A DNA stretch of 64,000 bases from Patescibacteria group bacterium (GTDB lineage Bacteria; Patescibacteriota; Minisyncoccia; 2-02-FULL-40-12; IGHO2-01-FULL-4-A), in assembly GCA_038064915.1 (NCBI GenBank), contig JBBTSB010000010.1:19809-83808 (forward strand). The letters run 5' to 3'. The notes under the pieces are model-generated. The model was not told the DNA's origin, did no database searches, and saw only the letters and a program-made list of their open reading frames with translations. A program made the position numbers and the translations under genes. How positions within the stretch are numbered: the first letter of the stretch is position 1; every line of letters starts with the position of its first letter. Shown here piece by piece: positions 34,315 to 59,751 of the stretch.

Positions 34315-34319
34315 TGAAG

Positions 34320-42799: not shown

Positions 42800-42871
42800 G
42801 CGGGTGTGGTTCAATGGTAGAACACGACCTTCCCAAGGTTGAGACGTGGGTCCGATTCCCATCACCCGCTC
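42800..42871 (+). tRNA. tRNA-Gly (anticodon CCC)
   Basis: Cloverleaf GCGGGTG acceptor / CACCCGC; D-arm GTTC..GAAC; anticodon stem CGACC/GGTTG with loop TTCCCAA; T-arm GTGGG-TCCGATT-CCCAT; no encoded CCA. Confidence 0.8.
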
Positions 42872-43536: not shown

Positions 43537-46500
43537 ATGAGTATAGCAACTATCAGAGCAATGTCTTCCAAAAAGACCTTGCTGATCGTAGTCGCCGCGG
43601 CAGCTATCGCTGCAGTCGGAGTATTCTTTGCTCTTCAGCAAGCTGCTCCCACGCAAAGCGTTAGCGCTTTCCAGCCGGGCGACGCCGGTCTTGTAAACGG
43701 GAATCTCATTACTGCCTACAATCAGGCAGGAGACCCCGATGTTTTCGTTATTAAAGAAGTCTATCCTACGGCCACGAAGCGCGTTTTCCAAAACGAAGCG
43801 ATCGGCCGCATGTATGGACAGTTCGGTTATGCGGGTATTTTCACCCCTGGCGTGATCAAGCAAGTTTCCGCATCCACTCGTGATGCGTTTACTCTTGGCT
43901 GCTATGTGAGAAATGCCGAAACGAATGATCCGAAGGTCTACTATCGTAATTCCACGGGTCCCGATACCGCTACGCTCCACTGGGTCAATGTGACCGCAGC
44001 TGAAGCGAATGCCGCAGATTCGATGTTCTTCCCCAAGACATTCGATATCAACAACGCAGAGTTCAACTTCTACGCGCAGGGAGCTGCATACACCAGTATG
44101 TCTCAAATCCCGGCCTGTACGACTGGTGGATCTGCAACTCCAGTACCGGTTCCAGGTGCGGTTTCCGCAAGCCTCTCTCCCGCCAACCCTGCTTCGGCAA
44201 CGGTTACGGGTGGAGCGAGTGGTGTGGAAATGCTCCGTGTCCGCCTGACGGGAACGGGGACACTTAGCACGGTTACCTTCAAGCGCATTGGCGCAGGTTC
44301 CGCGAATGATTTCAGCAATGTATACATCTATGATGGTGCTACCCGCTTGACTTCAGGAAAATCAGTTTCCACGTCAACCGGTGAAACAACCTTCATTAGC
44401 TTGAACATTGCTGTCAACGGTTCGAAAGATCTTTCCCTCGTAGCTGACATTGCTGCCGGACAGACAGCAGGAAACGTAAACGGATTCCAGATAGCTTCCA
44501 TGGGATTGGTTGCCGGTACCGTGACTGGTTTGCCGATTTCCGGCAACCTCTTTACGATGGCCGGAGCTGACAGTGGCATCCTTGATGTCGCGAAAGTGGG
44601 TTCAATCCCCAACCCCGTTGTAGGCCAGAAAGGCGCACAGTTGTCTGAATTTAGACTCACTTCCAACACGGAAGGCTCATGGGTGAAGCGTGTCACTCTC
44701 TTGCAGGGCGGTACGGTCAAGGCCTCTGACATCACCAATGTCAAGATCAAAACCGGTACGACCGAATGGAGCGGTACGGTTACCTCTACCGGCTACCTCG
44801 TCTTCGATATGGGCAGTGGATTCTTCATTGCAAAAGGCGGAGACGCAATCTTCAAGGTCTATGGAGATATGGCAGGCAAGAAGGATGAAGATGTCAATCT
44901 TTACTTCGAATATGCGTCAGATCTATGGGCGGTAGGTGACCAGTTTGGATTCGGTATGAACACCGCATCCGGCACTGCGAACAAAGGTATTGATGCCCTT
45001 GATGCGGCTTCTGAAGCGCACGACGTGACCCTCCAAGGTGGAGCTCTCACGATCGCCTTCAATGGACCGTCCGCAGGGAACATAGGTACCAATACCTCCG
45101 ACACGACCCTCTTGAGAGTATCCATGACTGCAGTTTCGAACATCGAAATCCGCAAGACGGAATTGACTCTCTGTAAGGATCCTGCCGGTGACGGCTCATT
45201 TGGCAATGCCGCAGATACCGACAGCGGTTGGTCAGATATCACCGATATCAAGATGACCGATGAAGCGGCGGGAGGACTTGGTACAGTTCTTGGTCCAGAA
45301 GATGGATCAGCATTTACCACGTCTGATTCCGGCACTTGTGAGGACAGCGTGACCGGAGCTCAAAAGAGCTTCAACAATTCGTTTGTCCTTATGGGCGGAA
45401 AGACCTACAGCTTCAAAGTTACGGGTGATATCAACACTGCAAACACTGATGGTAATGGCGTTGCATTGAGCGCTGCTGATGCGATGCAGCTCTTCCTCGA
45501 CAACTATGCTGATGACACTCCGGATGTGACCATCATGAAATATGATGGTACCAACACGGCAGTTGCGGATGCGGATATTGTTCCGCAATCTGACATCGGC
45601 GGAGGCATCCAGACACTCCAAGCTTCTTCGCTGACGCTTGGTTTGAGCTCGGGTGTTAATGACCAAAGCTTTGTACGTGGCACCCAGGGAATCACGGCAG
45701 TTGGTCTTACCTTCAAGTCGGCGCAAGCTTCAGACATGACGGTGACCGATCTCGTGTTGACAGGGTACTTCTCCGAAGCGGGTTCTACATTCGTAGTCGG
45801 TTCTGATACCACCACGAGTGTTGCGGATCTGGTGAGCGGCGTATCGCTCTATGAAATAGAGTCCAATACGACCATCGCCACGACCCCAACCAGCAACCAG
45901 CTTTCGAACACCACCGGTACGGTGACGTTCAATGGCTTGAACTGGAAAATCCCCGCAGGCGCTACCAAGACGCTTGGCGTAAAAGTCAACCTTGGAAGCA
46001 ATGCACTTGCCGACACCGATTACTTCGCATTCGATATCAACGCGACGACGGATGTCACCGCGCTTGATAAAGATTCGCGTACGGTAAATGCCGGCAACGC
46101 CGATCCAAACAACAGCACCAGCGCTACTACCGTGGTCACCGTCCTCAACTCTGGTTCACTGGCAGTTGCGGTTGCTACGGCAACCACGCCACGTGACCAC
46201 GCAGTCTACTGGGGACAAACCGGTGACTCTGCAGGTGTATGGCGCTTCACGTCAACCAATGAGGCCCAGTACCTAAAGACCCTGCAGTTCGGTGAATACG
46301 ATGCAGGTGGTACCCAGGAAACGGATCTTGCGACCAACGCAAGGACTGTCTACCTTGAGTACAAGAACAAGCTCGGACAGACATTGACAGCCAGCGGAGC
46401 CTTGAGCACTGCGGGAACGACATCATTCGGATTCTCCGATGATGCGACCAGCCCCTACGTACCCAAGGACAGCAGCATGGATGTCACCATCAAGGTTGAC

Positions 46501-47250
46501 TACAAGAACAAGACTGAAGGTGCCTCAACTGGTAAGACCTGGGACTTTGACTTCATCCCCAACACCAGCTCCGGAACTTCAATGTTCAAGGCGATTGGTG
46601 AGGGTTCAGGTGTAGTCATAGATGGTCAGGACACCGGTTTTACGGCGGCAGTCGACCAGGACACAGCAGGTACGGATATCATCATCTACCGTGTGTTCCC
46701 AGAGTTCAAGCTGATTACGCCAACCACGACGAATCTTTCGGTCGTAGATCCGATAGTCTCCTTCACGGTGACTGCCAAGGGTCTTTCCGACTCGAGAGTC
46801 TTCTTCGATGGTACAGCAGCTGGTTCTGGTTCAATCAAGTTCGCGGTGCTCGCCTCCGGGCGTGGCATCACGGCTGATCCGAACTTCACCGTCCGCAAGG
46901 GCGATGGTGTGGTCGTCGACACGGGATCCATCACTGATGCTCCGTTCGCGATCGCTGGACAGCGCGCCAGTATGACTATCGACTTCGGAACCCTGGATGT
47001 GGAAATCACGGGTGGTACTACCCAGACATTCCACGTCTACCTAGATTCGGTTTCAGACTTCAATACACCGGCTCAGTCAAACCCGGCGGTTGCAGCTGAC
47101 TACTTCCAGGTACAGCTCCGAGACGATGAGAACAGTCTGGTCAACTGGGTTGATAGTTCGACGAACTCGTCGAATGACCTCGATACCCAATCAACGTCAG
47201 GGTACTTAATGTACCTGCCGATGAGCGGATATCAGTTCATCGCCCAGTAG
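43537..47250 (+). CDS. 1237-aa secreted Thr/Ser/Gly/Ala-rich, essentially Cys-free, beta-rich surface (S-layer-like) protein; N-terminal ~140-aa domain shared with 31414..33576
   Basis: Signal/anchor sequence; strong compositional bias; long 5' leader; strong terminator downstream. Confidence 0.8.
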   Translation: MSIATIRAMSSKKTLLIVVAAAAIAAVGVFFALQQAAPTQSVSAFQPGDAGLVNGNLITAYNQAGDPDVFVIKEVYPTATKRVFQNEAIGRMYGQFGYAGIFTPGVIKQVSASTRDAFTLGCYVRNAETNDPKVYYRNSTGPDTATLHWVNVTAAEANAADSMFFPKTFDINNAEFNFYAQGAAYTSMSQIPACTTGGSATPVPVPGAVSASLSPANPASATVTGGASGVEMLRVRLTGTGTLSTVTFKRIGAGSANDFSNVYIYDGATRLTSGKSVSTSTGETTFISLNIAVNGSKDLSLVADIAAGQTAGNVNGFQIASMGLVAGTVTGLPISGNLFTMAGADSGILDVAKVGSIPNPVVGQKGAQLSEFRLTSNTEGSWVKRVTLLQGGTVKASDITNVKIKTGTTEWSGTVTSTGYLVFDMGSGFFIAKGGDAIFKVYGDMAGKKDEDVNLYFEYASDLWAVGDQFGFGMNTASGTANKGIDALDAASEAHDVTLQGGALTIAFNGPSAGNIGTNTSDTTLLRVSMTAVSNIEIRKTELTLCKDPAGDGSFGNAADTDSGWSDITDIKMTDEAAGGLGTVLGPEDGSAFTTSDSGTCEDSVTGAQKSFNNSFVLMGGKTYSFKVTGDINTANTDGNGVALSAADAMQLFLDNYADDTPDVTIMKYDGTNTAVADADIVPQSDIGGGIQTLQASSLTLGLSSGVNDQSFVRGTQGITAVGLTFKSAQASDMTVTDLVLTGYFSEAGSTFVVGSDTTTSVADLVSGVSLYEIESNTTIATTPTSNQLSNTTGTVTFNGLNWKIPAGATKTLGVKVNLGSNALADTDYFAFDINATTDVTALDKDSRTVNAGNADPNNSTSATTVVTVLNSGSLAVAVATATTPRDHAVYWGQTGDSAGVWRFTSTNEAQYLKTLQFGEYDAGGTQETDLATNARTVYLEYKNKLGQTLTASGALSTAGTTSFGFSDDATSPYVPKDSSMDVTIKVDYKNKTEGASTGKTWDFDFIPNTSSGTSMFKAIGEGSGVVIDGQDTGFTAAVDQDTAGTDIIIYRVFPEFKLITPTTTNLSVVDPIVSFTVTAKGLSDSRVFFDGTAAGSGSIKFAVLASGRGITADPNFTVRKGDGVVVDTGSITDAPFAIAGQRASMTIDFGTLDVEITGGTTQTFHVYLDSVSDFNTPAQSNPAVAADYFQVQLRDDENSLVNWVDSSTNSSNDLDTQSTSGYLMYLPMSGYQFIAQ

Positions 47251-47257
47251 AGAGTAG

Positions 47258-47298
47258 AATAGGACCTGTAGGACCAATCGGACATATAGGACCTATGG
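47258..47298. repeat. intergenic cluster of ATAGG(A/T)CC palindromic units (…AATAGGACCTGTAGGACC…ATAGGACCTAT…)
   Basis: The palindromic 11-mer ATAGGACCTAT is also seen at 47630..47662 and 52383..52417. Confidence 0.6.
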
Positions 47299-47330
47299 CA
47301 AACCCCCGCTTTGAAAAAAGCGGGGGTTTT
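47299..47330 (+). terminator. Rho-independent terminator AAACCCCCGCTTT-GAAA-AAAGCGGGGGTTTT
   Basis: perfect GC-rich stem plus U-tract. Confidence 0.85.
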
Positions 47331-47347
47331 GCTATGATGGGAAAGCT

Positions 47348-48418
47348 ATGAAACGCATATTTTTGCTACTGATACTTGTCATTTTTGTGGGGGGACTCTT
47401 GATTTGGCAGTCCGAGCGCCGTACAAAGCCTTCCCAGCCTGTACCGCCCGCCGGGTATACCCTTGAAGTCTACGCCCAGAGTTTGGATGATCCGCGGGTG
47501 ATAGCGTTTGATCCCCAGGGACGCATGCTGGTGAGTGAGACCTCCGCCGGACGGGTGACCCTGGTGACTCCGGATCGCAAGGTGCTCCTGGAAGAGCTTG
47601 ACAATCCTCATGGTCTGGCTTTCTATGAAGATAGGTCCGATAGGTCCTATACGACCTATCTGTACGTTGCTACTACACTCGAGGTGGCGCGCTACGCCTA
47701 TGATGTCGCCACTGCTACGGTGGATATTGCCAGCAAGAAAAATATTGTGGATCTTCCCAAAGGCGGCAAGCACTTCATCCGTACGATCGGCTTTGGAAAA
47801 GACTTTCGCGATGCGCCGATCATCGAAGGCTTGTCCCGCGAAAGTTTTTTGAGTCCCATCAAGCTCTATGTGAGTGTCGGTTCATCCTGCGATGCGTGTT
47901 TGGAGAACAGCTGGAAATATGCATCGATTCTGGAGTCTGATTCCAAAGGGACGTATACGGCGGAAGTGGCGGGGGGATTGCGCAACAGCGAATTTTTTAC
48001 CTTCCATCCCACGACAGGGGAACTGTGGGCATCGGAGCAAAGCCGTTCCCGGTTTCCCGATGAAATCAATATCATCAAGCCGCCACTCAAGTACGGCTGG
48101 CCGTACTGCTATGGCAACCAGATGTGGGACACGACGTTTACCGAAACGACCGATCGCACGGACTTGCCGATGGACTGTACAAGAACCGAACCGCCTGTCA
48201 TTGAGCTTCCGGAAAACGCCAATCCCCGTGGCATCGTCTTTTTGTCTCCCACGGAACTCCTCGTGGCCTATCAAGACAAGATCGTGCTTTTTGACGAACA
48301 GCACCAGCCGAGTGACTTTATGAACGGTTCGTTTGCCGATCTCAAGATTGACAGTCATGGCGATCTTTTCATCAGTGATGACAGCGCGGGAATTATTTAC
48401 CGGGTATCGCGTCCGTAA
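47348..48418 (+). CDS. secreted beta-propeller protein, PQQ-dependent sugar dehydrogenase (YliI/sGDH)-like
   Basis: Signal peptide; …FDPQGRMLVSETSAGRV… repeat pattern. Contains the in-frame palindromic repeat encoding EDRSDRSYTTYLY. Confidence 0.55.
   Translation: MKRIFLLLILVIFVGGLLIWQSERRTKPSQPVPPAGYTLEVYAQSLDDPRVIAFDPQGRMLVSETSAGRVTLVTPDRKVLLEELDNPHGLAFYEDRSDRSYTTYLYVATTLEVARYAYDVATATVDIASKKNIVDLPKGGKHFIRTIGFGKDFRDAPIIEGLSRESFLSPIKLYVSVGSSCDACLENSWKYASILESDSKGTYTAEVAGGLRNSEFFTFHPTTGELWASEQSRSRFPDEINIIKPPLKYGWPYCYGNQMWDTTFTETTDRTDLPMDCTRTEPPVIELPENANPRGIVFLSPTELLVAYQDKIVLFDEQHQPSDFMNGSFADLKIDSHGDLFISDDSAGIIYRVSRP
47630..47662. repeat. intragenic in-frame copy of ATAGGTCC/ATAGGTCCTAT palindromic repeat
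   Basis: GATAGGTCCGATAGGTCCTATACGACCTATC inside ORF 47348..48418. Confidence 0.6.
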
Positions 48419-49874
48419 CGCGGTTCTTGCGATACTGCTTGTGTTGGTATTTCTCCAGCCCTTTTTGAGCGCGCGCCGGTTTGGTCCGGTGACGGACGAA
48501 GTACCGCACATCGCCGCCGGCTATTCCTACTGGAAGACGGAGGAAGTCACGCTCAATTCCCAGCATCCTCCGCTGGTCAAACTCCTCGCTACGATCCCCA
48601 TGCTTTTTATGGATATCCGTTTTGATCCTGCCGACATGGCGCTGGGGCAGTGGCTTTTTGGGAGGAAATTTCTCTTTTCAAACGACGTTGATCGAATTCT
48701 CGCCTGGGCTCGCTTGATTCCCATGCTTCTCTCGGTGCTTCTGGGGTACTTCATCTATCGTTGGGCCAGGGAGCTTTTTAAAAATGATTGGGTGGGGATT
48801 TTGGCGCTTGGTATCTATGCGTTCATGCCCCCTATCCTCGCGCATGCCCAATTTGTGACGACGGATCTTGCTGTGGCGGCGTTCAGTTTCATCACCCTGT
48901 ACTTTGTGTGGCGGCGTTCGCTGTGGGCAGGGCTATTTTTGGGGCTGGCGCTTGCGACAAAGTTTTCCGCGCTCGTACTTCTTCCTATTGTTGTCATCGC
49001 GATGGGAGTACGGTGGCGCAAGACGTTGGCGATTCTTGGCATCGCGTTTGCTTTGCTCTATGTGGTATATCTACTTCCCAGCAACCTACACTTCTACCTT
49101 GATGGCTACCGGGCGCTGTATTCTGATCGAAGTCCCGATTACCTCTATTATTTGAACGGCCATTTTTCGGATGACGGGTTTTGGTATTATTTCTTGGAAG
49201 CCTTCCTTATCAAGACGCCAATTCCGTTTTTGATCGGTCTCCTGGGGGCGGTTGTTTATTCCAGTAAGTTCAAATTCAATTGGACAACAAACGTGCTATT
49301 GTGGGGGACTCCCGTGCTGTTTCTACTCGCGACGACGCTCAAGGCTGAGCAAATTGGAGTGCGATATTTATTGCCGATGTATCCGTTTTTGATTGTTTTG
49401 GTGTCGGGTTGGATATTCAAAATTTCAAATTTTAAATTATCATTTTCCATTTTGATTTTTGCATTTTCCATTTGGTACGTCGTTGGCACTGTTCGCATGT
49501 ACCCCGACTATCTTGCGTACTTCAACGAGTCTGTCGGTGGGCCACGCAACGGCTACCGGTATCTCGATGATTCGAATGTGGAATGGGGACAGGATGTAAA
49601 ACGTCTGGCCACGTACCAGCGCGAGCATGCCGGTACCAAGGTCATCTCTCCGTGGGAGGCAATCGACCTGGCATACTACGGAATAGGCGACAACCAGTTT
49701 ACCGCAAGCGGTGAGTGGTGGAAGGACCCGCATGGACGCTACGCGGTGAGCATATTTTATTTGATTCGTGCAAAAGCAGCCGCATTGCGCTATGGAGCTT
49801 CGGAAATTGACTGGCTTTCTCGCTTCCAGCCTGTAGATCGGATCGGCTATTCCTATTTTGTCTACGAATTATGA
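48378..49874 (+). CDS. GT-C membrane glycosyltransferase, GT39/GT83 (PMT/ArnT)-like, no TPR
   Basis: ~11 TM segments; first-loop DE motif (TDEVPHIAAGYSYW). ORF 48333..49874; the start is uncertain and overlaps the upstream gene. Confidence 0.7.
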   Translation: MTARELFTGYRVRNAVLAILLVLVFLQPFLSARRFGPVTDEVPHIAAGYSYWKTEEVTLNSQHPPLVKLLATIPMLFMDIRFDPADMALGQWLFGRKFLFSNDVDRILAWARLIPMLLSVLLGYFIYRWARELFKNDWVGILALGIYAFMPPILAHAQFVTTDLAVAAFSFITLYFVWRRSLWAGLFLGLALATKFSALVLLPIVVIAMGVRWRKTLAILGIAFALLYVVYLLPSNLHFYLDGYRALYSDRSPDYLYYLNGHFSDDGFWYYFLEAFLIKTPIPFLIGLLGAVVYSSKFKFNWTTNVLLWGTPVLFLLATTLKAEQIGVRYLLPMYPFLIVLVSGWIFKISNFKLSFSILIFAFSIWYVVGTVRMYPDYLAYFNESVGGPRNGYRYLDDSNVEWGQDVKRLATYQREHAGTKVISPWEAIDLAYYGIGDNQFTASGEWWKDPHGRYAVSIFYLIRAKAAALRYGASEIDWLSRFQPVDRIGYSYFVYEL

Positions 49875-51487
49875 AATACGCCTTGCTTCTCATCGTGGTC
49901 GTTGCTGCGCTATACGGACAGACGTTTTCATTTGGCTATGTCGGTCTCGATGAAGAAGAGCTCATTGTCCAGCGGCAGGGTTTTTTGCGGAATCCGGCAA
50001 ACATTCCCGTGATATTCACACACGATGTCAGCTATCCCAATAAAACTTCTCCGTACTACCGTCCAATGCTCACCCTATCGTTCATGGCGGATGCCATGAT
50101 CGGCGGTACGAGCAACGTAGTGGCGCACCTTACCAATGTACTCTTGCACATCGTTGCCGTCTTGCTCCTTTGGCGATTTTTTATTGCGCTTGGCATTGAG
50201 AAGTCCAAATCATTTTTTTATTCTCTGATCTTTGCTGTCCATCCTGTTTTCTCCCAAGCTGTCGCATGGGTGCCGGGGAGAAATGACACGCTATTGGCCG
50301 TTTTCGTTCTTTCCTCGTGCATCTTTTTTCTCAAGTCTCTTCGCCTCCGTTCGTGGAAACCGCACGCGGTACACTTTGCTTTGTTTGCGCTCGCGCTGTT
50401 GACCAAGGAAACCGCGGTTGTGGTTCCGATCATCATTATAGGAATATGGCTTTGGTTTTCTGGCGTGCCGTTTTCTTGGCGGCGTTTTTGGAGCTACGCA
50501 GTGCCTTGGATGATTCTTCTTGTTATCTGGTATGCCGTTCGGGCGCATGCACTTTCTTCCATCCCGGGGAAATCTCTGTCCGCAATGTTGTCGCAGATCT
50601 TGGGCTACGCTCCCCAGGTAGTGGTCTACTTGGGAAAAATCATATTACCATTTCAGCTTTCTGTGATGCCTTCCGCAGGGGATAGTGTTATTTGGTTTGG
50701 TTTGGGGGCTCTTATCATTCTGTGTGCCCTGGTATATATCAGCAGGAAATACTTGCGATCTTCACAGGTATTCTTTGGTGCTTGCTGGTTCTTGTCGTTC
50801 TTGGTTCCATCGCTGATCAGCTATGATGATCCGTCCAGGGTGGTATTTTTTGAACATCGGCTTTACCTGCCGCTGATCGGTGTATTGCTCATATTTGCAT
50901 TGCTTCCGGGGAGAGTCTGGAAAATCGGCGCACCCATCCTTGTTGGTTTTGCCGTGCTTGCTTTTTTTCATGTTCGAACATTTCGCAGTGAAATTTCTTT
51001 CTGGGAGCAGGCTGTATCGTCATCACCCAGTATGGCTCGCGCGCGCAACTCTTTGGGAGTTGCCTACGCCAATGCGGGACGCCTCGGAGATGCGTTTCAG
51101 GAATATCAAACCGCGTACCGCATGACCCCGGATGATTATTTGATCAATACCAGTTTGGGGAATGCCTATCGGTTGCGGCGAGAACCGGCGCTTGCCGAAG
51201 AGCACCTCAAAAAAGCTATTTCCATAAATCCTGCCCGCGCGCCAGCGCATCACTACCTGGGATTCCTCTATGCAACACAAAAGCGTTTTTCTGAAGCCGA
51301 GCAGGAATGGTTTCTTGCGCTTCAATACAATTCACAGTACGCTCCACCACATGAAGCTTTGGCGGTATACTATGCACAGGTAGGGCGATTTGAAGAATCC
51401 ATCGTGCACATCCGCGCCATCATGGAACTGGGAGCTCCAGTTCTTCCCGAACTTATGAACATATTGCAGACACATCAACAGCCATGA
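49871..51487 (+). CDS. TMTC/PMT_2-like GT-C membrane glycosyltransferase with C-terminal TPR repeats (paralog 1)
   Basis: ATGA coupling to the upstream gene; DEEE loop motif, YYRP motif, TPR tail. Confidence 0.75.
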   Translation: MKYALLLIVVVAALYGQTFSFGYVGLDEEELIVQRQGFLRNPANIPVIFTHDVSYPNKTSPYYRPMLTLSFMADAMIGGTSNVVAHLTNVLLHIVAVLLLWRFFIALGIEKSKSFFYSLIFAVHPVFSQAVAWVPGRNDTLLAVFVLSSCIFFLKSLRLRSWKPHAVHFALFALALLTKETAVVVPIIIIGIWLWFSGVPFSWRRFWSYAVPWMILLVIWYAVRAHALSSIPGKSLSAMLSQILGYAPQVVVYLGKIILPFQLSVMPSAGDSVIWFGLGALIILCALVYISRKYLRSSQVFFGACWFLSFLVPSLISYDDPSRVVFFEHRLYLPLIGVLLIFALLPGRVWKIGAPILVGFAVLAFFHVRTFRSEISFWEQAVSSSPSMARARNSLGVAYANAGRLGDAFQEYQTAYRMTPDDYLINTSLGNAYRLRREPALAEEHLKKAISINPARAPAHHYLGFLYATQKRFSEAEQEWFLALQYNSQYAPPHEALAVYYAQVGRFEESIVHIRAIMELGAPVLPELMNILQTHQQP

Positions 51488-53169
51488 AGTACGCAGTCAT
51501 CATTCTCATTCTTGTCGGTGCGCTGATCTATGGTTTTAATGTAACCGGCCAGCTTTTGTGGGATGACATCGAATGGATCGCGACCAATCCTTTTGTCCAC
51601 TCGTTTTCGTGGGACAATATCAAACATTGGTTCAGTGGTAATGTTTTGGAGGGAATTGGTCTCTCGAGCAATTACTACCGGCCGTTCCTCTTTGCCACAT
51701 TCACCTTTAACTACGTCATGCACGGCGTACATCCTGTTGGATGGCATGTTGTAAGCAATCTAATTCATATTGCCAACGCCATCCTTCTTGTTTTCCTGTT
51801 GATGCGCCTGTTTGGCAATCGATTTCTTGCTTTTTGGGTTGGTCTGATCTTCCTCGTTCATCCGCTTCAAACCGAGGCGGTGACATACATCTCCGGCCGG
51901 GGGGATCCTCTGGCCGCGCTTTTCATGCTTTCCGCGCTGTTGCTATTCCTTCGGGGCCGGCGTGTTCTCCCGCTTGTTTTTCTTGTACTTGCGCTCTTGA
52001 GTCGAGAAACAGCAATCATGTTTCCGTTCCTCCTGATGATCGTGCTGATCGTGCAGAGTAAAGAGACATTCTGGCGCTCGCTGAAAAAATCTTTTTTTCA
52101 AGCATTGCCGTATGTTGGCGTTGTCACCGCCTATGGCATATTGCGTCTTACGGTGCTGAACTTTGACAACACGCTCAATTTTTTCTCTTCCGCTGTTTCC
52201 AATCCCTACACGCAAAGTGTATTCGTCCGCCTGATTACCTTCTTGAGCATCCTGCCGACCTATGGCCGGCTTCTTCTGGTTCCCCTTGGTCTCCATATGG
52301 ACCGTGCGCCGGCCGTATATACGTCGCTGACGTTCTGGGAAGTGTGGGTGCCCCTGGTGGTGCTTCTGGGGCTCCTGTATGTGACCTATACGACCTATAG
52401 GTCTCATAGGACCTATGCTGGGGTTCTGTTTTTTGGCATTGCATGGTTTTTTGCGGCGATCAGTCCCATGAGCGGCATCACGCCTATCAATGCGATCATG
52501 TACGAGCACTGGCTCTACGTTCCACTCATTGGACCGTTTACGATTATCGTATATTTTCTTTCGCGCATTTCCTACCGCAAAGCGGTCATTGCCGTTCTTG
52601 TATTACTTACGGCTTGGTTTTCGTACCTTGCGATCCAACGCAATAGAATTTGGTCGAATCCAATTGCGCTGTTTGAAGATATCTTGCGCTATGAGCCCAT
52701 GAGTGCGCGGGCGCTGACCAATGCCGCGAACCTCTACTTTGAACAGGGTGATACCGCAATGGCCGAGGCCTACTACCGACGTGCCATCGCCACCAATACC
52801 TCATTTCCCCAAGCTTACTACAATCTTGCTCGGCTCCACCGCGAGCAGGGGAGATACACAGAAACGCTGCCCTTGCTCCGCCGTGCGCTTGATCTGGATC
52901 CAGGTTTTTTCTACGCCTACCAGGAGCTTGCCATCGTTTATGCGCATGAGGGGGATTTCATCCGGTCCCGCGATGCGCTTCTTGCGCTACGCGAACTGCG
53001 TCCTCAAGACCCGCGCGTGTATTTGAATTTGGGCAAAGTTGAACAGGCCCTGGGAAACACTCGTGAGGCGATACGCTGGTTGACTGCAGGATTACCGCTC
53101 TCGGAAAGTGATCTTGAGGCGCACCAGGAAATCCAAGCACTTCTTGACCAACTTGCCAAAAAACGGTAG
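51484..53169 (+). CDS. TMTC/PMT_2-like GT-C glycosyltransferase with C-terminal TPR repeats (paralog 2)
   Basis: ATGA coupling; WDD, YYRP, TPR tail. Contains the in-frame palindromic repeat (VTYTTYRSHRTYA). Confidence 0.75.
   Translation: MKYAVIILILVGALIYGFNVTGQLLWDDIEWIATNPFVHSFSWDNIKHWFSGNVLEGIGLSSNYYRPFLFATFTFNYVMHGVHPVGWHVVSNLIHIANAILLVFLLMRLFGNRFLAFWVGLIFLVHPLQTEAVTYISGRGDPLAALFMLSALLLFLRGRRVLPLVFLVLALLSRETAIMFPFLLMIVLIVQSKETFWRSLKKSFFQALPYVGVVTAYGILRLTVLNFDNTLNFFSSAVSNPYTQSVFVRLITFLSILPTYGRLLLVPLGLHMDRAPAVYTSLTFWEVWVPLVVLLGLLYVTYTTYRSHRTYAGVLFFGIAWFFAAISPMSGITPINAIMYEHWLYVPLIGPFTIIVYFLSRISYRKAVIAVLVLLTAWFSYLAIQRNRIWSNPIALFEDILRYEPMSARALTNAANLYFEQGDTAMAEAYYRRAIATNTSFPQAYYNLARLHREQGRYTETLPLLRRALDLDPGFFYAYQELAIVYAHEGDFIRSRDALLALRELRPQDPRVYLNLGKVEQALGNTREAIRWLTAGLPLSESDLEAHQEIQALLDQLAKKR
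52383..52417. repeat. intragenic in-frame copy of the ATAGGACCTAT palindromic repeat
   Basis: GACCTATACGACCTATAGGTCTCATAGGACCTATG inside ORF 51484..53169. Confidence 0.6.
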
Positions 53170-53185
53170 TCTTGCAGATACTACC

Positions 53186-53692
53186 ATGAAGAAAAACATC
53201 TTATTTGTCCTTATATTAGTGGTTATTATTCTCGGAGGGGCGTTTGTCGTGTGGAACAATAGACAGTCCGCTCAACCGAACCCTTCTCCGTCAAGTAGTG
53301 CTATCGCACCGACGCCCTCTCCCAGCGGGGCGGACATTACCCAGTTTACGAAACCGGCCAGCTGTCAGCTTTCCGGATCCATTGATTTTTTGCAAAAAAA
53401 TATCTTTCGTTCCAACGACGCTCTGTTCCGATATCAGGGCATTGACAATGAGGCGCGTTTGATCACCTGGACGGTCAGTCCAACCGATGAGTTTTCGATC
53501 GGCCCGAACATTTTTGCAAACCTTGATATTCCGGACGGCAGTCGTTCGCTTACGATTTCTCTTCCCGCCGAACCAAAAGCTCGCCAGTATACATTGACCG
53601 CTCGTATCTCCTATGGTCGCTGGGTCAATAACACCGTCGTTGTAAAAGAAGCACGATGCTCCGGTTCAATCCCCGTATATCTTCGCTATTAG
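53186..53692 (+). CDS. small secreted/membrane-anchored hypothetical protein (169 aa)
   Basis: ATG 53186 within ORF 53108..53692; signal peptide MKKNILFVLILVVIILGGAFVVW. Confidence 0.5.
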   Translation: MKKNILFVLILVVIILGGAFVVWNNRQSAQPNPSPSSSAIAPTPSPSGADITQFTKPASCQLSGSIDFLQKNIFRSNDALFRYQGIDNEARLITWTVSPTDEFSIGPNIFANLDIPDGSRSLTISLPAEPKARQYTLTARISYGRWVNNTVVVKEARCSGSIPVYLRY

Positions 53693-55455
53693 CGCTCTCT
53701 GCAAGCCTCATACTATCATTTGCGCTGTTTGGCAACGGCATAAAAGGAGATTATGTTTTTGACGACAAAATAGTCATTCTGGGCAATCCGCATTTGGAAG
53801 AGCGTCCGCCGAGTCTTATAGACATCTTTAGCGATTCCTACCATGCATACCAGCCGACGACCGGTTTGTATCGGCCGCTGACGATCGCAAGCTTTGCACT
53901 GAACACGTATATGTTCGGAACGTCGCCGGTGAGTTTTCATGTGTTCAATATCATCCTCCACGCTCTTGTGGGGTTCATGATCTATGTAATCGTCGGAAGT
54001 CTTGCCGATATGCGCACGGCCGTGGTAAGCGCGCTCCTGTTTCTGTTCCTTCCCATCCATGTCGAAGATGTTACGTCCTTGGTGGGTCGCGCGGAGCTTT
54101 TGGCGCTTTTGTTTTCGCTTGTAGCGCTGTATGCGGTCATGCGCGGAAAGTATCATTGGGGGGCGCTGGCGTTTCTTTTGGGGCTTTTCAGCAAGGAATC
54201 CGCGATCGCATTCATTCCGATTTGGCTTTCCTGGGAATATTTTTTCAACAAACAAACGATTCGCACAATCCTCAAGCGATTTTTGATTATGCTTCCTGCA
54301 ATCAGTATATATGCGGTGCTCCGTTATCTAGCTTTGGGGAAATATGTTCTTGCCAACGATGCCACGGCCGTCTACAATCCGCTCAAATTTGCTCCTTTTT
54401 TTGATACACTGTGGACCAGCGGCAAAATCGCTTTTCTCTATATTCAAAAAATGTTGGTGCCCACGGTTTTTTCTTCGGATTATTCGTTCAACCAGATTCC
54501 CGTCGTCCACAATCCCTTTAGCTCCTGGCAGGCCCTGCTCGGATTGACGATACTCGCGGGACTTGTGTGGATTGCCGTAAAAAAGCGGCGTTCGCTTGTT
54601 GGATGGTCTGCCGTAGTGTTTCTTGCTTTTTATTTCATCATATCAAATCTTATTTTCAAAACCGGTACCATCATGGCGGAGCGTTTGGTATATGCCGCAT
54701 CGCTTGGTCTGGTGATGTTATTGGCGCTGTGTATAGAGCATCTCCGAAAAAAAATCGGTCATGAAAAGGTCATCTATGGCGCTTTGACAATTATGTTGAT
54801 TTTCTATGGATACAAAACTATCAATCGCAATTCTGTTTGGATCAGCGAGGAACGGCTTTTTGCGTCTGCCGTTGTCGTGGCTCCGGAGAGTGTTGTGAAC
54901 CGCACCAACCTTGCCTATCTTCGCTATGTCCAAAAAGATCTTGAGGGCGCAAAGACGGAAAGCGAAGGAGTGTTGGCTATCGCTCCCGACCATGTGCCCG
55001 CTCTCAACCTGGCCGCGCAATCAAACAAAAAGCTTGGCAACCCCAAGGTTGCAGAAGATTACTGGAAGCGTGCCATTGAGCTCCGTCCAGATTATGTCCG
55101 CGGATATTTGGGATTGGGTGTGTTATACTACGAAAATGGTCACTTTCCGGACGCAGAGCTCATTCTTACCAAGGCGGTAAATATTTTCCCGCGCTGGAGT
55201 GAGGTGCTGTTTCTCTCGCTGACCAAAACGGCGCTAAAGAAATACGATGAGGCGATTGCGATTGTTATTCAGCACTTCGGAGAAGATCCGGAGCGACCGG
55301 ACCTCATCTTTGCTCTCGGCGTAGCCTACTACAAAAAAGGCGACCGCGAGCATGCCATGAAGTACCTGCGCAAGGTCCAAAATCCCAACCTTACCCAAGA
55401 GCAATTTTTACAAACCATTGAAAAAAACACTATTTTTCTCATTACTGATCTGTAG
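53656..55455 (+). CDS. TMTC/PMT_2-like GT-C glycosyltransferase with TPR (paralog 3)
   Basis: VFDDKIV, GLYRPL, TPR tail; very similar to paralog 5. Confidence 0.75.
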   Translation: MLRFNPRISSLLALSASLILSFALFGNGIKGDYVFDDKIVILGNPHLEERPPSLIDIFSDSYHAYQPTTGLYRPLTIASFALNTYMFGTSPVSFHVFNIILHALVGFMIYVIVGSLADMRTAVVSALLFLFLPIHVEDVTSLVGRAELLALLFSLVALYAVMRGKYHWGALAFLLGLFSKESAIAFIPIWLSWEYFFNKQTIRTILKRFLIMLPAISIYAVLRYLALGKYVLANDATAVYNPLKFAPFFDTLWTSGKIAFLYIQKMLVPTVFSSDYSFNQIPVVHNPFSSWQALLGLTILAGLVWIAVKKRRSLVGWSAVVFLAFYFIISNLIFKTGTIMAERLVYAASLGLVMLLALCIEHLRKKIGHEKVIYGALTIMLIFYGYKTINRNSVWISEERLFASAVVVAPESVVNRTNLAYLRYVQKDLEGAKTESEGVLAIAPDHVPALNLAAQSNKKLGNPKVAEDYWKRAIELRPDYVRGYLGLGVLYYENGHFPDAELILTKAVNIFPRWSEVLFLSLTKTALKKYDEAIAIVIQHFGEDPERPDLIFALGVAYYKKGDREHAMKYLRKVQNPNLTQEQFLQTIEKNTIFLITDL

Positions 55456-57064
55456 TGCGATTGTAGCGATCTACGCGCAAACGCTGAAGTTTGATTTTGT
55501 GTCCCTGGACGAGGAGGATCACCTTGCCAACCGCCAGTATTTTCTCTCATCAGTAAAAAATATTCCGGAAGCTTTTCAGCACAACACCTACTATCCCAAT
55601 GGAACATCGCAATACTACCGGCCCCTGCACACGATTTCCTTTATGCTCGATGCGATCGGCGACATCACTCCGTCAAAATCCCACGCCATCAACATCGTTC
55701 TCCACATGGGTGCGGCGTTGCTGCTGTTTTGGTTCATGCGGGAGCTGGGGATTGGAAAAACGGCTTCATTTTTTCTCGCACTGCTCTTCGCGGTACACCC
55801 GATCGGCAGTCGAATCGTGGGATGGGTGCCGGGGCGGAATGACGCCACGTTTGCTATATTTGCGATAGCCTCGTGTATCGCGTATCTCCGATGGGTGGCT
55901 CATCCCGAGCGCTGGTGGCTCATGGCGGTGCACCTGGTGCTGTTTTTTGCAGCTTTCTTGAGCAAGGAATTGGGCATCGTTTTGCCTATTCTGTACGTGC
56001 TCATGCCTCGCAATTATGTTGTATCTCGAAAACACGTTGGTCTGGTGGCCGGCGGTTGGATTCTTATCGTCATTTTCTGGTGGCTCATGAGATCCGAAGC
56101 ACTTGCGGGAACGGTTGTTACCGCGTGGAACGATTTGTTGCTGGGACTTTTTCCCAATACCGTTGCCATTCCTTTCTATCTCCAGATTTCTTCGTTGCCG
56201 CTCCATCCGTCCGTTATGCCGACGATGCAGGATGCGCTTCATTGGCTACCCATTGTCGTCAGCGGAGCTTTTATTGCCATACTCATCGTGCTTGGGAAGC
56301 GATTTCAACCCCGCAGTAATTTGCTTCTCTTTGGTATTGCCTGGTTTCTCCTATTTCTTCTTCCTTCTCTTGCGGGGTATGGATCGGATATCCGTCTGGT
56401 GCTATTTGAACACCGAGCCTATGTTCCGCTCATGGGACTGCTGTTTATTGCCGCCGCTTTTCCCTGGGGCCGCATGATTCCTTTCTCCCGTTCCCGTCGC
56501 TTCATCCTTGCGGGAGCTGTAGTTGCCGTGTATGGTGTTTTTGCCTTTTTGGGAACTCGTGATTTTCGGGATGCTTTGACATTTTGGGAAAAAGCAGTAG
56601 CGCAAGCGCCCGACTACGCCGGATCACATAAAGGGCTGGGAACGGTGTATGTCAACAGAGGACGTTTTGATGATGCCGTGAACGAGTTTCAAAAAGCGCT
56701 CGAACTGAATCCGACAGAAAAACGCGTACACAACAACCTCGGCATTATTTACCTGAACCAACGGCGGGTGCAGGAGGCGGAAATGGAATTTCTCTCGGAG
56801 CTTGACGTAAACCCCGGCTATGCGATCACCTACAACAACCTCGGGTTTGTGTACGCCACGCAGAAGCGATTTGCAGACGCGGAAAAAGCATGGCTTACGG
56901 CGCTGGTGTTCGATCCCTGGTATGCCGCTCCGCACCAGGGCCTGGCTATTATCTATGCCATTGCAAACAATAAAGAGCAGTCCTTGGCCCACATTGAGGC
57001 GCTCGTGAAGCTTGGTGCCCCGCTTTCTCCGGATATACAGAAGATCTATGAAAGTTACCGGTAG
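55418..57064 (+). CDS. TMTC/PMT_2-like GT-C glycosyltransferase with TPR (paralog 4)
   Basis: SLDEED, QYYRPL, TPR tail. Confidence 0.75.
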   Translation: MKKTLFFSLLICSAIVAIYAQTLKFDFVSLDEEDHLANRQYFLSSVKNIPEAFQHNTYYPNGTSQYYRPLHTISFMLDAIGDITPSKSHAINIVLHMGAALLLFWFMRELGIGKTASFFLALLFAVHPIGSRIVGWVPGRNDATFAIFAIASCIAYLRWVAHPERWWLMAVHLVLFFAAFLSKELGIVLPILYVLMPRNYVVSRKHVGLVAGGWILIVIFWWLMRSEALAGTVVTAWNDLLLGLFPNTVAIPFYLQISSLPLHPSVMPTMQDALHWLPIVVSGAFIAILIVLGKRFQPRSNLLLFGIAWFLLFLLPSLAGYGSDIRLVLFEHRAYVPLMGLLFIAAAFPWGRMIPFSRSRRFILAGAVVAVYGVFAFLGTRDFRDALTFWEKAVAQAPDYAGSHKGLGTVYVNRGRFDDAVNEFQKALELNPTEKRVHNNLGIIYLNQRRVQEAEMEFLSELDVNPGYAITYNNLGFVYATQKRFADAEKAWLTALVFDPWYAAPHQGLAIIYAIANNKEQSLAHIEALVKLGAPLSPDIQKIYESYR

Positions 57065-58805
57065 CAAGTATCTCTTGGTGGGTTTGGCTGTTTCGTTTGC
57101 GCTTTTCAGCAACGGAATACGGGGAGACTTTGTTTTTGATGACGCGATCGTCATTGTTGGCAATCCCATTATTGAGCGGGGGATTTCCGGGGTGGTTGAG
57201 GCCTTCCGGTCACCCTACCACGCTTACCAACCCAAGACAGGCCTTTATCGTCCGCTTACGATTTTTTCTTATTCGCTGAATTACGCTATATTCGGCACTT
57301 CACCGGTGAGCTTTCATGTGGTTAACATTGTTCTGCATGGGCTCGTTGGGTTTTTTATTTTCTTGGTCCTTCAACAGATTGGTGGCAAGCGCGCGGCTAT
57401 TCTTGGCATGTTGCTGTTCCTCGCGTTTCCCATTCATGTCGAGGACGTGACGTCTATCGTAGGCCGTGCTGAACTCCTCGCCCTGCTGTTTGTTCTTGCG
57501 GCTTTGTATAGTGCCATGCGACATCGGTACATCCTTGCATCCTGTATGTTTTTGCTCGGCATCTTGAGTAAAGAATCCGCGATCGTATTTTTGCCAATGT
57601 GGCTTGCGTGGGAATACTTCTTTAACAAACAAACGATTCGCACCATCCTCAAGCGATTTTTGATTATGATTCTTGCAATAAGTATGTATGCGGTGCTCCG
57701 CTATCTGGCACTGGGGGAATATTTTCTCGCCAACGATGCCACTCCCACGTACAACGCTCTCAAATTCGCTACCATTCCCCAAACCCTATGGACATCAGGG
57801 AAGATTTTTTTTCTGTATCTGCAAAAAACGTTGTTCCCGACGGTTTTTTCGCCCGACTATTCGCTTTTCCAGATACCGTTGCTCAACAGTCCTCTGGCGT
57901 CATGGGAGTCGATCGTGGGAATAGTGCTACTTGTCGGCTGTATCGTGATTGCATGGCGAAATCGGCGTTCTCCCTTGGGGTGGTTTGTTCTATTCTTTTT
58001 GAGTTCCTACTTTATTATTTCCAATCTTGTTTTCAAAACCGGCACAATCATGGCCGAGCGCATTCTGTATCCAGCCACCTTTGGCCTTGCGGCGATGACT
58101 GCGTATGGCATCGAGTGGTTGAGACAGAAATGGGGGCATGAGAAGGTGATCTATGCGAGTGTAACTCTTCTACTCCTTTTCTATGGCTTCAAAACAATCC
58201 AGCACAACCGTGACTGGATCAGCGAAACTAATCTTTTTCAACGAGCCTATGCTTCCGCGCCGTTGAGTATTCCCAATAGGGTAAACCATGCATATTTGGC
58301 GTATCGAGATAACAACTATGCGCGTGCTGTTGATGAACTGGAAGCGACGTTGACCGTTGTGCCCGATCATGTCCCCGCCTTGCATCTTGCGGGGCAAGCA
58401 TATAAAAAAATGGGCAACGTGGGTAAGGCAGAGGAGTATTGGAAAAAAGCAGTTGCATTGCAACCCGACTATCTTGCCGCTTACCTTGGTCTGGGAATGC
58501 TGTATTATGAGCAGGGGCATTTTGCGTCCGCGGAGGCGGCGCTTGATGACGCGGTGGCCGTCTTTCCTCGTTCTAGCGAAGTCGCCTATCTTTCATTGGC
58601 AAAGACCGGTCTCAAAAAATATGACGAAGCGATTTCGATTGTGGAGAACTATTTTGGAAAAAATCCCGGCCAGGTTGAATTGCGTCTTGCTCTTGGCATC
58701 GCCTGGTACAAAAAGGGCGACAAGGAGCGGGCATCGGAATACATCAGCGCTGATTATTTTCCCACGATTGAGAAAAATTCGATCTTTCGAATCATTGACC
58801 TATAG
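57048..58805 (+). CDS. TMTC/PMT_2-like GT-C glycosyltransferase with TPR (paralog 5)
   Basis: ATG 57048 within ORF 57012..58805; VFDDAIV, GLYRPL; long identical stretches with paralog 3 (for example KQTIRTILKRFLIM). Confidence 0.75.
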   Translation: MKVTGSKYLLVGLAVSFALFSNGIRGDFVFDDAIVIVGNPIIERGISGVVEAFRSPYHAYQPKTGLYRPLTIFSYSLNYAIFGTSPVSFHVVNIVLHGLVGFFIFLVLQQIGGKRAAILGMLLFLAFPIHVEDVTSIVGRAELLALLFVLAALYSAMRHRYILASCMFLLGILSKESAIVFLPMWLAWEYFFNKQTIRTILKRFLIMILAISMYAVLRYLALGEYFLANDATPTYNALKFATIPQTLWTSGKIFFLYLQKTLFPTVFSPDYSLFQIPLLNSPLASWESIVGIVLLVGCIVIAWRNRRSPLGWFVLFFLSSYFIISNLVFKTGTIMAERILYPATFGLAAMTAYGIEWLRQKWGHEKVIYASVTLLLLFYGFKTIQHNRDWISETNLFQRAYASAPLSIPNRVNHAYLAYRDNNYARAVDELEATLTVVPDHVPALHLAGQAYKKMGNVGKAEEYWKKAVALQPDYLAAYLGLGMLYYEQGHFASAEAALDDAVAVFPRSSEVAYLSLAKTGLKKYDEAISIVENYFGKNPGQVELRLALGIAWYKKGDKERASEYISADYFPTIEKNSIFRIIDL

Positions 58806-59717
58806 GAGAGCTTCGATATCACGGACCATTTTTTTTAAATCAAATCGGTGCAAGATCGTTTGGTGTCCTTGAATGGCGAATTCTTGGCGCAGGCGGTCGT
58901 TGTCCATCAGTTTAAATATGGCATCGGCAATCCGTTCCGGTTTTTTGGGTTCGACGAGAAAACCATTGACCCCATCCTGAATCATTTCGGGTGCCGCACC
59001 TACACGCGTCGCGACGATGGGAACCTTGGCCGCCATGGCTTCCAGAAGCGCCCAAGAAAAACCCTCTTTGACCGAAGACGAAACATATACATCAAAGGCA
59101 CGCAGGAAGCGTGAGGCGTTCGGTGTATCGCTCAAGATTTTTACGAGGTAGCGGTTATGCCGGGGAAGATACTCCAAGCCTTTAGCGGGATATGGGTTGG
59201 CGATAGTTCCCACGACAAAGGCATCGGCAGGAAGGTCAAGCTTTGTCCGCGCTTCGTCCCGCGGCAAAAATTCCATCTTATACACATCAAGCCCGTTGTG
59301 AATCACGAGGAGTTTTTCGCGCGGCTTGATGCCATAGCGAATCGCTTGTTGGTAGTCGTGGTCGTTGTTGAGAATGATGATGTCCCGCCATCGGGCGAGC
59401 AGTTGTTCCACAAACCGCATCAGCGGCCGCCACCAGGGCTTGGGATCGTTGAAAGACCATCCTCCGATGCGATACACCACACGTGCTTTTGTTCCTATGG
59501 CTGCAAGAGTACCCCATCCGCCCGCCACCGAACTCATGAGAAATAACGTATCGGGTTTGAAATCTGCAATCGCTTTTCGTATCTTGAAAAAGTTTTTTTC
59601 ATGGAGGACCTCGTACGAAAATCGCGACCGGTCAATGCGGCTTTCCAGTTCTCGAAGAAACGTTTGCGCCCCCCCGATGCCTCCCTGACTGATAACAAAG
59701 AGTATCTTCTTCACCTT
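58800..59717 (-). CDS. GT4 family glycosyltransferase
   Basis: EGFSWALLEAMAAKVPIVATRVG motif. The ORF extends to 59828, but the likely start is the GTG near 59717 (VKKILFVISQGGIGG). Confidence 0.7.
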   Translation of the reverse strand, partial: KVKKILFVISQGGIGGAQTFLRELESRIDRSRFSYEVLHEKNFFKIRKAIADFKPDTLFLMSSVAGGWGTLAAIGTKARVVYRIGGWSFNDPKPWWRPLMRFVEQLLARWRDIIILNNDHDYQQAIRYGIKPREKLLVIHNGLDVYKMEFLPRDEARTKLDLPADAFVVGTIANPYPAKGLEYLPRHNRYLVKILSDTPNASRFLRAFDVYVSSSVKEGFSWALLEAMAAKVPIVATRVGAAPEMIQDGVNGFLVEPKKPERIADAIFKLMDNDRLRQEFAIQGHQTILHRFDLKKMVRDIEALL

Positions 59718-59751
59718 GAAAAAATACAACAAAAATGATATTTTATCAAGT

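Follow-up and report, generated by a model that had tools for sequence, protein, structure and literature searches.

Rickettsia palindromic elements (RPEs) are pieces of palindromic DNA that lie in frame inside open reading frames (ORFs) and are translated as extra loop residues. In the REP-RAYT systems (repetitive extragenic palindromes and their associated tyrosine transposases), a gene is flanked by its cognate short palindromic repeat, the repeat is specific to the gene subfamily, and gene-less copies are dispersed. In the operator arrays of MetJ and of the omega repressor each unit is bound cooperatively by one protein dimer. DNA uptake motifs (uptake signal sequences and DNA uptake sequences, USS/DUS) can arise by substitution without any change in length, and use reading frames that are tolerated. 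The 23S rRNA intervening sequence of Coxiella is a PF05635 ORF within a 28-bp terminal stem, which is cut out by RNase III, and it is regarded as a selfish, horizontally acquired element (PMC4990558). Our literature search revealed that 23S_rRNA_IVP genes also occur in rRNA insertions of candidate phyla radiation (CPR) bacteria. Here we analyze three short repeat arrays (A, B and C) in a 64-kb stretch of contig JBBTSB010000010.1, hereafter the window, which comes from a Patescibacteria (CPR) bacterium near Yanofskybacteria from Hainich groundwater, sampled at well H51 in the 0.1-um fraction. The arrays are built from a 9-bp unit, and the same kind of array recurs across phyla, concentrated at genes for four-helix-bundle-suffix (4HB-suffix) proteins. 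The copies in the window are probably gene-less, neutral members of this array family.

Each of the three sites is a head-to-tail array of 3-4 units of 9 bp with the consensus ATAGGACCT. The general form can be written as (ATAGGACNN)n, that is, a heptamer core ATAGGAC plus two variable bases. The arrays are:

47259..47296, + strand: array A, units ATAGGACCT GTAGGACCA ATCGGACAT ATAGGACCT followed by AT; untranslated.
47631..47659, + strand: array B, units ATAGGTCCG ATAGGTCCT ATACGACCT followed by AT; read in frame as (D)RS DRS YTT Y.
52379..52416, + strand: array C, units ATGTGACCT ATACGACCT ATAGGTCTC ATAGGACCT followed by AT; read in frame as VTY TTY RSH RTY.

A preliminary description of this DNA had reported a family of DNA-level repeats, centered on the palindrome ATAGGWCCTAT, that occurs both between genes and in frame within ORFs. 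The family is real, and the 11-mer is indeed present three times in the window, at 47286, 47640 and 52406, far above chance (0.01 copies expected; none of 100 dinucleotide-preserving shuffles reached three). The sites are also palindromic and hairpin-forming, as had been claimed, but they are not a palindrome with degenerate half-units: they are a tandem repeat of period 9. Tandem Repeats Finder reported this period at 47259-47296 (4.2 copies, consensus ATAGGACCT) and at 47630-47651, and array B holds GATAGGTCC, an exact 9-bp tandem duplication. When up to three mismatches were allowed, a consensus of two units had nine matches in the window, every one within sites A, B and C (0.01 expected). 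All three sites have at least three successive units at exact 9-bp spacing, each with no more than one mismatch to ATAGGAC, and arrays of two or more units of this quality were found at these sites only in the 64 kb (block-shuffle mean, 0.2). No further array was detected in the rest of the 64 kb or in the ~10 kb past either edge, and the density is thus 3 per ~84 kb.

The arrays measure 29-38 bp and all lie on the transcribed strand. They are self-complementary and form hairpins, with DNA fold z values of -3.3 to -3.5 and RNA folding energies of -13.8 to -14.7 kcal/mol (for array A, z = -3.3 and -14.2 kcal/mol), and their stems are only ~11 bp. Neither a target duplication nor terminal repeats other than the unit itself were seen at the window arrays; in particular, the alignment of site B with the ortholog of a sister species (L002) showed boundaries without a target-site duplication.

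The peptide readings given earlier for arrays B and C, EDRSDRSYTTYLY and VTYTTYRSHRTYA, were correct, and the two arrays share their frame relative to the unit, AGG-WCC-TAT, which is read as R-S/T-Y. AGG is the rarest arginine codon of the operon (9 of 164), and four of these nine AGG codons lie within arrays B and C. Furthermore, in an outgroup ortholog (L275) the loop at site C, YRTKRTTY, is written with CGC codons. Because the arrays use rare AGG codons, array A is untranslated and the outgroup writes its loop with CGC, the feature shared by the sites is the DNA and not the peptide. We conclude that selection or propagation of the motif in the window acts on the DNA.

All three arrays are unchanged in four independent assemblies of the population from which the window comes. 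The sister species (L001-L004, ~70% nucleotide identity) has the same operon and none of arrays A, B and C; array A, for instance, is missing in L002. The intragenic copies had been described as in-frame insertions, and for site B this agreed with the sister: the window is 24 nt longer than L002, which reads FEN-YLY where the window reads YEDRSDRSYTTYLY. Relative to the more distant orthologs L273 and L274, the window is longer at this site by only 3-4 codons (9-12 nt), and L274 carries the array-like GATAAGACCAAGACCTAT, encoded by GAT AAG ACC AAG ACC TAT. Site C, in contrast, has the same length as its closest ortholog (L001, 71% identical), which reads ITCMSYKSHKTYF against VTYTTYRSHRTYA in the window. 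The DNA of this ortholog, ..TAT AAA TCT CAT AAG ACC TAC, is already array-like, and the window has ..TAT AGG TCT CAT AGG ACC TAT; the substitutions point toward the motif and include two changes from Lys (AAR) to Arg (AGG). At site A, a two-unit relic, CAATAGGATTTATAGATG, is present at the same position in L273, with the TAG of the unit as the stop codon. The comparison with orthologs proposed in the preliminary description thus bears out an in-frame insertion only in part: the arrays are absent in the sister, yet relics or look-alikes are found in the more distant L273 and L274. Sites A-C behave as repeat loci, at which units are gained, lost and drift, and they may predate the divergence from the sister species.

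A 20-mer search pattern built from the window, ATNGGWCNNATAGGACCTAT, which matches sites A, B and C, found 64 stretches in viral contigs; not one was matched by a control pattern of equal base composition. Roughly half of the viral matches were low-GC collagen-like (G-P-I)n genes, and the others were window-like arrays of 3-5 units. The low-GC phage and giant-virus contigs concerned (for example L010, L012, L021, L029, L047 and L059) match via (GGACCTATA)n, that is, (Gly-Pro-Ile)n; since this repeat encodes long collagen-like genes, it is a false-positive class for any search with the motif. A scan of species representatives (one genome per species) matched at least 120 loci, and the figures given here cover the matches listed. 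They comprise Acidobacteriota (Thermoanaerobaculia, Pyrinomonadaceae, Blastocatellia and Aminicenantes), Verrucomicrobiota, Planctomycetota, Hydrogenedentota, Sumerlaeota, Deltaproteobacteria, Chlorobium, Lentisphaerae, Cloacimonadota, Prevotellaceae, one CPR Daviesbacteria and one Vibrio isolate. Copies therefore exist far beyond the window in both scans, and the objection that there might be no additional ones does not hold.

The arrays so collected have 2-10 units, typically 3-5, with a near-invariant ATAGGAC core and two variable last bases, in a logo that is biased by the search pattern. Many of them are doublets, a plus array followed by a minus array, which form perfect palindromes that include the variable bases; these doublets often adjoin terminator hairpins or come straight after stop codons. 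The unit variants ATACGACCT, ATAGGTCCT and ATAGGTCTC of the window recur elsewhere, the first of them 11 times, and strings of 14 nt and 20 nt are common to the window sites and to arrays of other phyla. The 20-mer ATAGGTCTCATAGGACCTAT of site C is identical to a string in viral contig L056, and the 20-mer ATAGGTCCTATACGACCTAT of site B is identical in L143 and L177, in arrays that flank 4HB-suffix genes. No Rfam family matching the arrays was found for the window and 19 array-rich loci, and full-text literature searches (with the repeat strings; with PF05635, TIGR02436 and TIGR04258; and with intervening-sequence protein plus repeats) returned no description of them. These results show that the window sites belong to a cross-phylum, ATAGGAC-type array family.

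Intragenic copies in other genomes were accepted only when confirmed by Pfam, an ORF-spanning screen of high-GC loci being too unspecific. In-frame arrays were found in the verified ORFs of rpoB (L163), squalene-hopene cyclase (SHC; L110) and the Lhr helicase (L090), and in the adenylation domain of a nonribosomal peptide synthetase (NRPS), at the same position in three Aminicenantes genomes. The rpoB gene of L163 (969-4286) has two of them, IGPIGPIGQIGP in domain 2 and NRSNKTNMTNRTY at the start of domain 6, and one of the two aligns to another rpoB without length gain, as does site C of the window. Arrays also lie in the rpoB-rpoC spacer of L132 and L148. In two Thermoanaerobaculia loci (L139:6150-6305 and L191:1346-1493) there are inverted array pairs with the same extra sequence, ATAGGCCTGCGGACCTTG.., following on both sides; here the arrays seem to be the ends of a larger composite repeat.

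Two trivial or mechanistic explanations were discarded. An assembly or library artefact was rejected, since four independent assemblies (Logan assemblies of raw runs among them) have identical arrays, and the ORFs continue as the same protein on either side of an array. A footprint model, in which nested or repeated transposon insertions duplicate 2 bp or 9 bp, was rejected on the few arrays inspected by eye: in the doublets of L106, L114 and L172, the variable bases of one arm are the reverse complement of those of the other arm, not direct repeats.

Among the 120 array-selected loci, one ORF family overlaps or abuts the arrays in 8 loci of five phyla, and the arrays are found directly upstream of, directly downstream of and inside these genes. 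The encoded 4HB-suffix proteins share 55-75% identity among themselves. Their scores exceed the curated cut-offs of TIGR02436 (four helix bundle protein) and TIGR04258 (suffix domain) and fall just short of that of PF05635 (23S rRNA intervening-sequence protein). An unbiased test was provided by 80 metagenome loci (L193-L272) picked by the 4HB-suffix protein alone. An array was present in the inter-domain linker in 56 of the 80, within 200 nt upstream of the gene in 20/76 and within 200 nt downstream in 19/72, and the other 223 kb of these loci contained 5 arrays only. The concentration of arrays at 4HB-suffix genes is thus ~50-fold.

The linker consists of repeated tripeptides whose number varies, homologues differing by whole units. 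One subfamily has the linker ..NRSYxTYxTY.. and a second has ..SDKSDRSDKSD..; the second also has a different palindromic core, GTCNGAC(NN), in both linker and flanks. The core type of linker and flank agrees in all 25 loci that have both (21 of ATAGGAC type and 4 of GTCNGAC type). A third array type was seen in the cultured Prevotella nigrescens (NZ_CP082843.1, L281:4600-4740), where a homologue annotated as 'four helix bundle suffix domain-containing protein' is followed by a CCTAGG-type 9-bp array, ..CCCTAGGGTTCCTAGGAATACTAGGAACCCTA... The CPR Curtissbacteria (L276-278) have arrays before the gene, in the linker and after the gene, and these are rich in ATACGAC units, as in the window. We conclude that: i) the array family is concentrated at 4HB-suffix genes, and ii) the core of the array co-varies with the gene subfamily.

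Gene-less copies are nevertheless the majority: in 112 of the 120 array-selected loci, a 4HB-suffix gene is missing from the surrounding 8 kb. In the viral contigs ~29 non-collagen arrays face one 4HB-suffix gene; the search of these contigs for the gene returned this one locus only, and a plain PF05635 query returned none. The 4HB-suffix profile had no match among PDB chains at E <= 0.01. Among the recurrent gene neighbours reverse transcriptase, which would point to diversity-generating retroelements (DGRs), was absent, and only type I-C cas genes recurred. In 23 of the 80 gene-selected loci, the 4HB-suffix gene lies between cas7 and cas4 (cas8c-cas7-[gene]-cas4-cas1, type I-C; L196 and L201 are examples, as is L153 outside that set), and short arrays separate the gene from cas4. 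An earlier survey had found 23S_rRNA_IVP genes scattered through cas loci, and its reference list includes the crystal structure of a homologue, Xcc0516, that is built from five four-helix bundles (PMC3936711). In one of the gene-selected loci (L265:1540-1800), a truncated 4HB-suffix copy ends exactly in a (SDx)n linker array, ~130 nt upstream of an intact copy with which it has a 26-nt identical stretch in common. The truncated copy suggests that arrays may act as recombination breakpoints.

Plain PF05635 genes showed a related layout. In two CPR loci (L279:13850-19400 and L276:19200-19830) each such gene is bracketed by complementary tandem short repeats whose units are gene-specific: TCAAAAN (7 nt), TCTGAGTNT (9 nt), ATTGTTCG (8 nt) and TAGGCAN (7 nt). 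The complementarity of the flanks was significant for 7 of the 8 PF05635 genes tested (z 5.8-8.8). The ATAGGAC and GTCNGAC units are near-palindromic, and therefore directly oriented arrays of them are still mutually complementary. In L279, five PF05635 genes are interleaved with type IV secretion system (T4SS)-pilin genes within 20 kb.

The window arrays lie in and beside the following features:

43537..47250, + strand: ORF of 1237 aa without Pfam match, the 'S-layer' protein of the preliminary description; array A lies in its 3' untranslated region (UTR).
47300..47331, + strand: GC hairpin, AAACCCCCGC..GCGGGGGTTT, then TTTT; from the RNA fold, outside the repeat.
47348..48418, + strand: gene for a sugar dehydrogenase dependent on pyrroloquinoline quinone (PQQ), the GSDH beta-propeller; host of array B.
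51484..53169, + strand: gene for a PMT-like GT-C glycosyltransferase with tetratricopeptide repeats (TPR); host of array C.

Array A begins 9 nt past the stop codon of the 1237-aa ORF and ends directly before the GC hairpin, which is the presumed terminator of that ORF. The preliminary description had array A standing before an S-layer terminator, and a strong GC hairpin with TTTT is there; a consensus scan for terminators, however, made no call at 47300-47329, because the T run has only 4 T. A promoter-like site, TTGAAA-16-TATGAT (47311-47338; 10/12, with TG), lies within the hairpin and ends 10 nt before the GSDH start codon, and one stretch may therefore serve as both terminator and promoter. 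The host genes are as first described, namely a GSDH/PQQ-sugar-dehydrogenase propeller and a TPR protein whose homologues carry PMT/PMT_2 matches. Array B falls in a length-variable loop of the propeller, and array C in a short basic loop that follows a hydrophobic segment. At least five paralogous PMT_2/TPR GT-C genes succeed one another with overlapping start and stop codons (window 48333-60000 and L284). They are followed by a long block of GT4/GT2 glycosyltransferases, and the two groups together make up a large island for surface glycosylation, downstream of the 1237-aa ORF. Rfam matched just two features of the window, a class A RNase P RNA (34317-34726, - strand, 143.9 bits) and one tRNA (42800-42870, + strand); rRNA was absent. 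Other simple tandem repeats of the window are (CCACAC)6.7 at 31892-31931 and (GAAGAAAGAAAA)5 at 37684-37744. No homology was found between the 1237-aa protein and a 1239-aa neighbour of a Levybacteria 4HB-suffix gene.

On balance, we lean towards the interpretation that arrays A, B and C are gene-less ('solo') copies of a cross-phylum 9-bp array family whose home is a selfish gene unit of the 4HB-suffix type. The home unit would consist of a gene for a PF05635/TIGR02436 plus TIGR04258 protein, with one array in the inter-domain linker and more directly before and after the gene, and the protein would be of the family that is encoded within 23S rRNA intervening sequences. Since the unit is near-palindromic, the arrays on the two sides of the gene are mutually complementary, which gives the stem-around-an-ORF layout of intervening sequences; solo arrays would then be miniature hairpin versions without the ORF. 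Units of 9 bp might be gained and lost via hairpin-promoted slippage, and short-patch conversion by other arrays, or else selection acting on the motif, could draw look-alike sequences to the consensus. Arrays may persist inside genes because 9 bases are three codons; survival there would need frames that avoid the TAG of the unit (here AGG-WCC-TAT, giving R-S/T-Y) and tolerant loops. The PF05635 protein would be the likely ligand of the arrays, as RNA or as DNA, and the window arrays would be near-neutral passengers rather than regulators of the operon.

Several observations weigh against this interpretation. No PF05635 or 4HB-suffix gene was found in the 64-kb window or in the ~10 kb beyond each edge, and therefore the link to such a gene in the window genome is a family resemblance only. 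Because the pattern behind the array-selected loci was derived from the window, the unit statistics of these loci are biased toward the window. At site C and at one rpoB site of L163 the motif comes with no change in length, and more distant relatives hold relics at sites A and B; rather than being recent insertions, the copies may therefore be old sequences that evolve where they are. All three copies are found in 5.2 kb of a single operon, and such clustering is not expected from a neutral, purely random process. Finally, a four-helix bundle has no known strand-transfer chemistry by which arrays could reach new sites.

The arrays might instead be autonomous miniature mobile palindromic elements, RPE-like or resembling miniature inverted-repeat transposable elements (MITEs), that insert as units independently of any PF05635 gene. 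The 24 extra nt at site B and the sister without any of the three arrays are what such elements would leave, as are the in-frame copies in rpoB, SHC, Lhr and NRPS genes of other phyla; the 112 of 120 listed loci without a 4HB-suffix gene within 8 kb, and the viral contigs with ~29 non-collagen arrays for one such gene, also speak for independence from the gene. Yet there is no length gain at site C or at one rpoB site, no target duplication, no terminal structure besides the repeat unit and no fixed size (2-10 units); relics occur at equivalent positions in more distant orthologs, and the ~50-fold concentration of arrays at 4HB-suffix genes and the co-variation of the core are left unexplained. 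We consider such elements unlikely here. The clustering that troubles the solo-copy interpretation would suit functional cis-elements of the surface-glycosylation operon, either iterated binding sites of a host DNA- or RNA-binding regulator, like tandem palindromic operator units, or RNA hairpins that govern transcript stability: ~84 kb contain only three arrays, all of them in a 5.2-kb part of a single co-oriented operon, each is on the transcribed strand and folds as a hairpin, array A stands between a stop codon and a terminator-like hairpin, and the substitutions at site C run toward the motif through a rare codon. This explanation also seems quite unlikely, however, because the sister species keeps the operon without the arrays, which are freely lost in the close relatives L001-L004, two of the three sites are deep within coding sequence, arrays of this kind turn up in unrelated surroundings across many phyla, and no candidate regulator was identified.

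A local accident, in which loops rich in Tyr, Arg and Thr underwent ordinary 9-bp slippage unrelated to arrays elsewhere, would account for the simple tandem duplication in array B and for the K/R-S/T-Y-like peptides of orthologous loops (YKSHKTY, DKTKTY and DKKNTTY). It is already disfavoured and very improbable, given a chance expectation of only 0.01 for the 11-mer, the use of the rarest Arg codon, the non-coding array A, the 14-nt and 20-nt strings common to the sites and to arrays in other phyla, and the 64 matches against 0 for the same-composition control. Biased DNA uptake and recombination would explain how a motif is gained without length change, as happened by substitution alone at site C and at the L163 rpoB site. 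CPR bacteria are believed to rely on taking up DNA, and the uptake sequences described so far lie in coding DNA as well as in inverted pairs close to terminators. Uptake-signal-like sequences are nonetheless extremely improbable: the density is 3 per ~84 kb versus about one per kb for known uptake sequences, one core recurs across many phyla whereas uptake sequences are lineage-specific, and neither the tandem-array form nor the gene association is a feature of such sequences.

A wider version of the solo-copy interpretation, which we regard as possible but doubtful, is that PF05635 proteins (here the suffix subfamily) are the sequence-specific partners of the repeats that bracket their genes, and that together they form a transposase-free propagation system. 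If so, gene-less arrays would colonize spacers and even core genes such as rpoB across at least ten phyla, and the three arrays of the window would be offshoots of such a system. The same logic would explain the origin of rRNA intervening sequences and the scatter of PF05635 genes in cas operons.

In the literature searched, we found no description of this cross-phylum association between gene and repeat. If it holds genome-wide, a very common, functionally unexplained gene family (comprising the PF05635/'four helix bundle protein' genes, the ORF of rRNA intervening sequences and relatives of the DGR accessory protein Avd) would gain a testable partner, a 7-9-nt tandem repeat. Short peptide repeats that lie in frame within otherwise conserved proteins would acquire a definite source, rRNA intervening sequences would join a broader class of selfish units bracketed by hairpins, and attention would be drawn to an element that recurs between the cas7 and cas4 genes of type I-C CRISPR operons. 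For annotation, the repeat family could be mistaken for collagen-like repeats or for chance palindromes. The consequence for the window itself is modest: a few loop residues are added or recoded in two enzymes, and one hairpin is added to a 3' UTR.

How do the window arrays compare with described systems? MITEs differ in that site B lacks a target duplication and the arrays have no fixed length, their unit number being variable. Collagen-like (Gly-X-Y)n genes are long GGN-NNN-NNN arrays, whereas the window copies read R-S/T-Y and have 3-4 units. USS/DUS motifs are likewise short and present in both coding and non-coding DNA, but they are fixed 9-12-mers at ~1 per kb; the arrays are tandem, far too sparse and not lineage-specific. 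The preliminary description had likened the sites to RPEs. Sites B and C do lie inside ORFs with the frame kept and are translated, but they are not elements of ~100-150 bp confined to one genus: they are arrays of 29-38 bp of a 9-bp unit, with variable unit number and relatives in many phyla, and of the two intragenic copies, the one at site C adds no length relative to its closest ortholog.

With REP/REPIN-RAYT systems the array family has in common a single gene flanked by a cognate short palindromic repeat that is specific to the gene subfamily, and many dispersed gene-less copies, often as inverted doublets beside terminators. The flanked gene, however, encodes a four-helix bundle and not an HUH (Y1) transposase, and the repeats are tandem 9-mers of variable number that also occur inside coding sequences. 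The 8-bp metboxes of MetJ and the 7-bp heptad arrays of the omega repressor are, like the arrays, head-to-tail runs of 2-10 short near-palindromic units, and by analogy they could be a model for how a protein might read ATAGGAC arrays; the period here is 9 bp, and sites in coding sequence or behind stop codons do not resemble operator positions.

The 23S rRNA intervening sequences of Leptospira and Coxiella are, with REP/RAYT systems and RPEs, the closest systems known. They encode the same protein family, PF05635/TIGR02436, as the array-associated genes, and they have the same layout, complementary arms around an ORF, which was seen in 7 of the 8 ORF-bearing relatives tested. Both also have a sporadic distribution that suggests horizontal spread, and ORF-less hairpin versions. 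In contrast to intervening sequences, the arms of the array family are tandem 7-9-nt units, not a unique inverted repeat, and solo copies sit in mRNA-coding DNA and are translated. The window copies lie outside rRNA, in a 3' UTR and two protein-coding genes, and have no ORF and stems of ~11 bp, which are probably too short for RNase III. The window elements thus lack a defining feature of each of the three, intervening sequences, REP/RAYT systems and RPEs.

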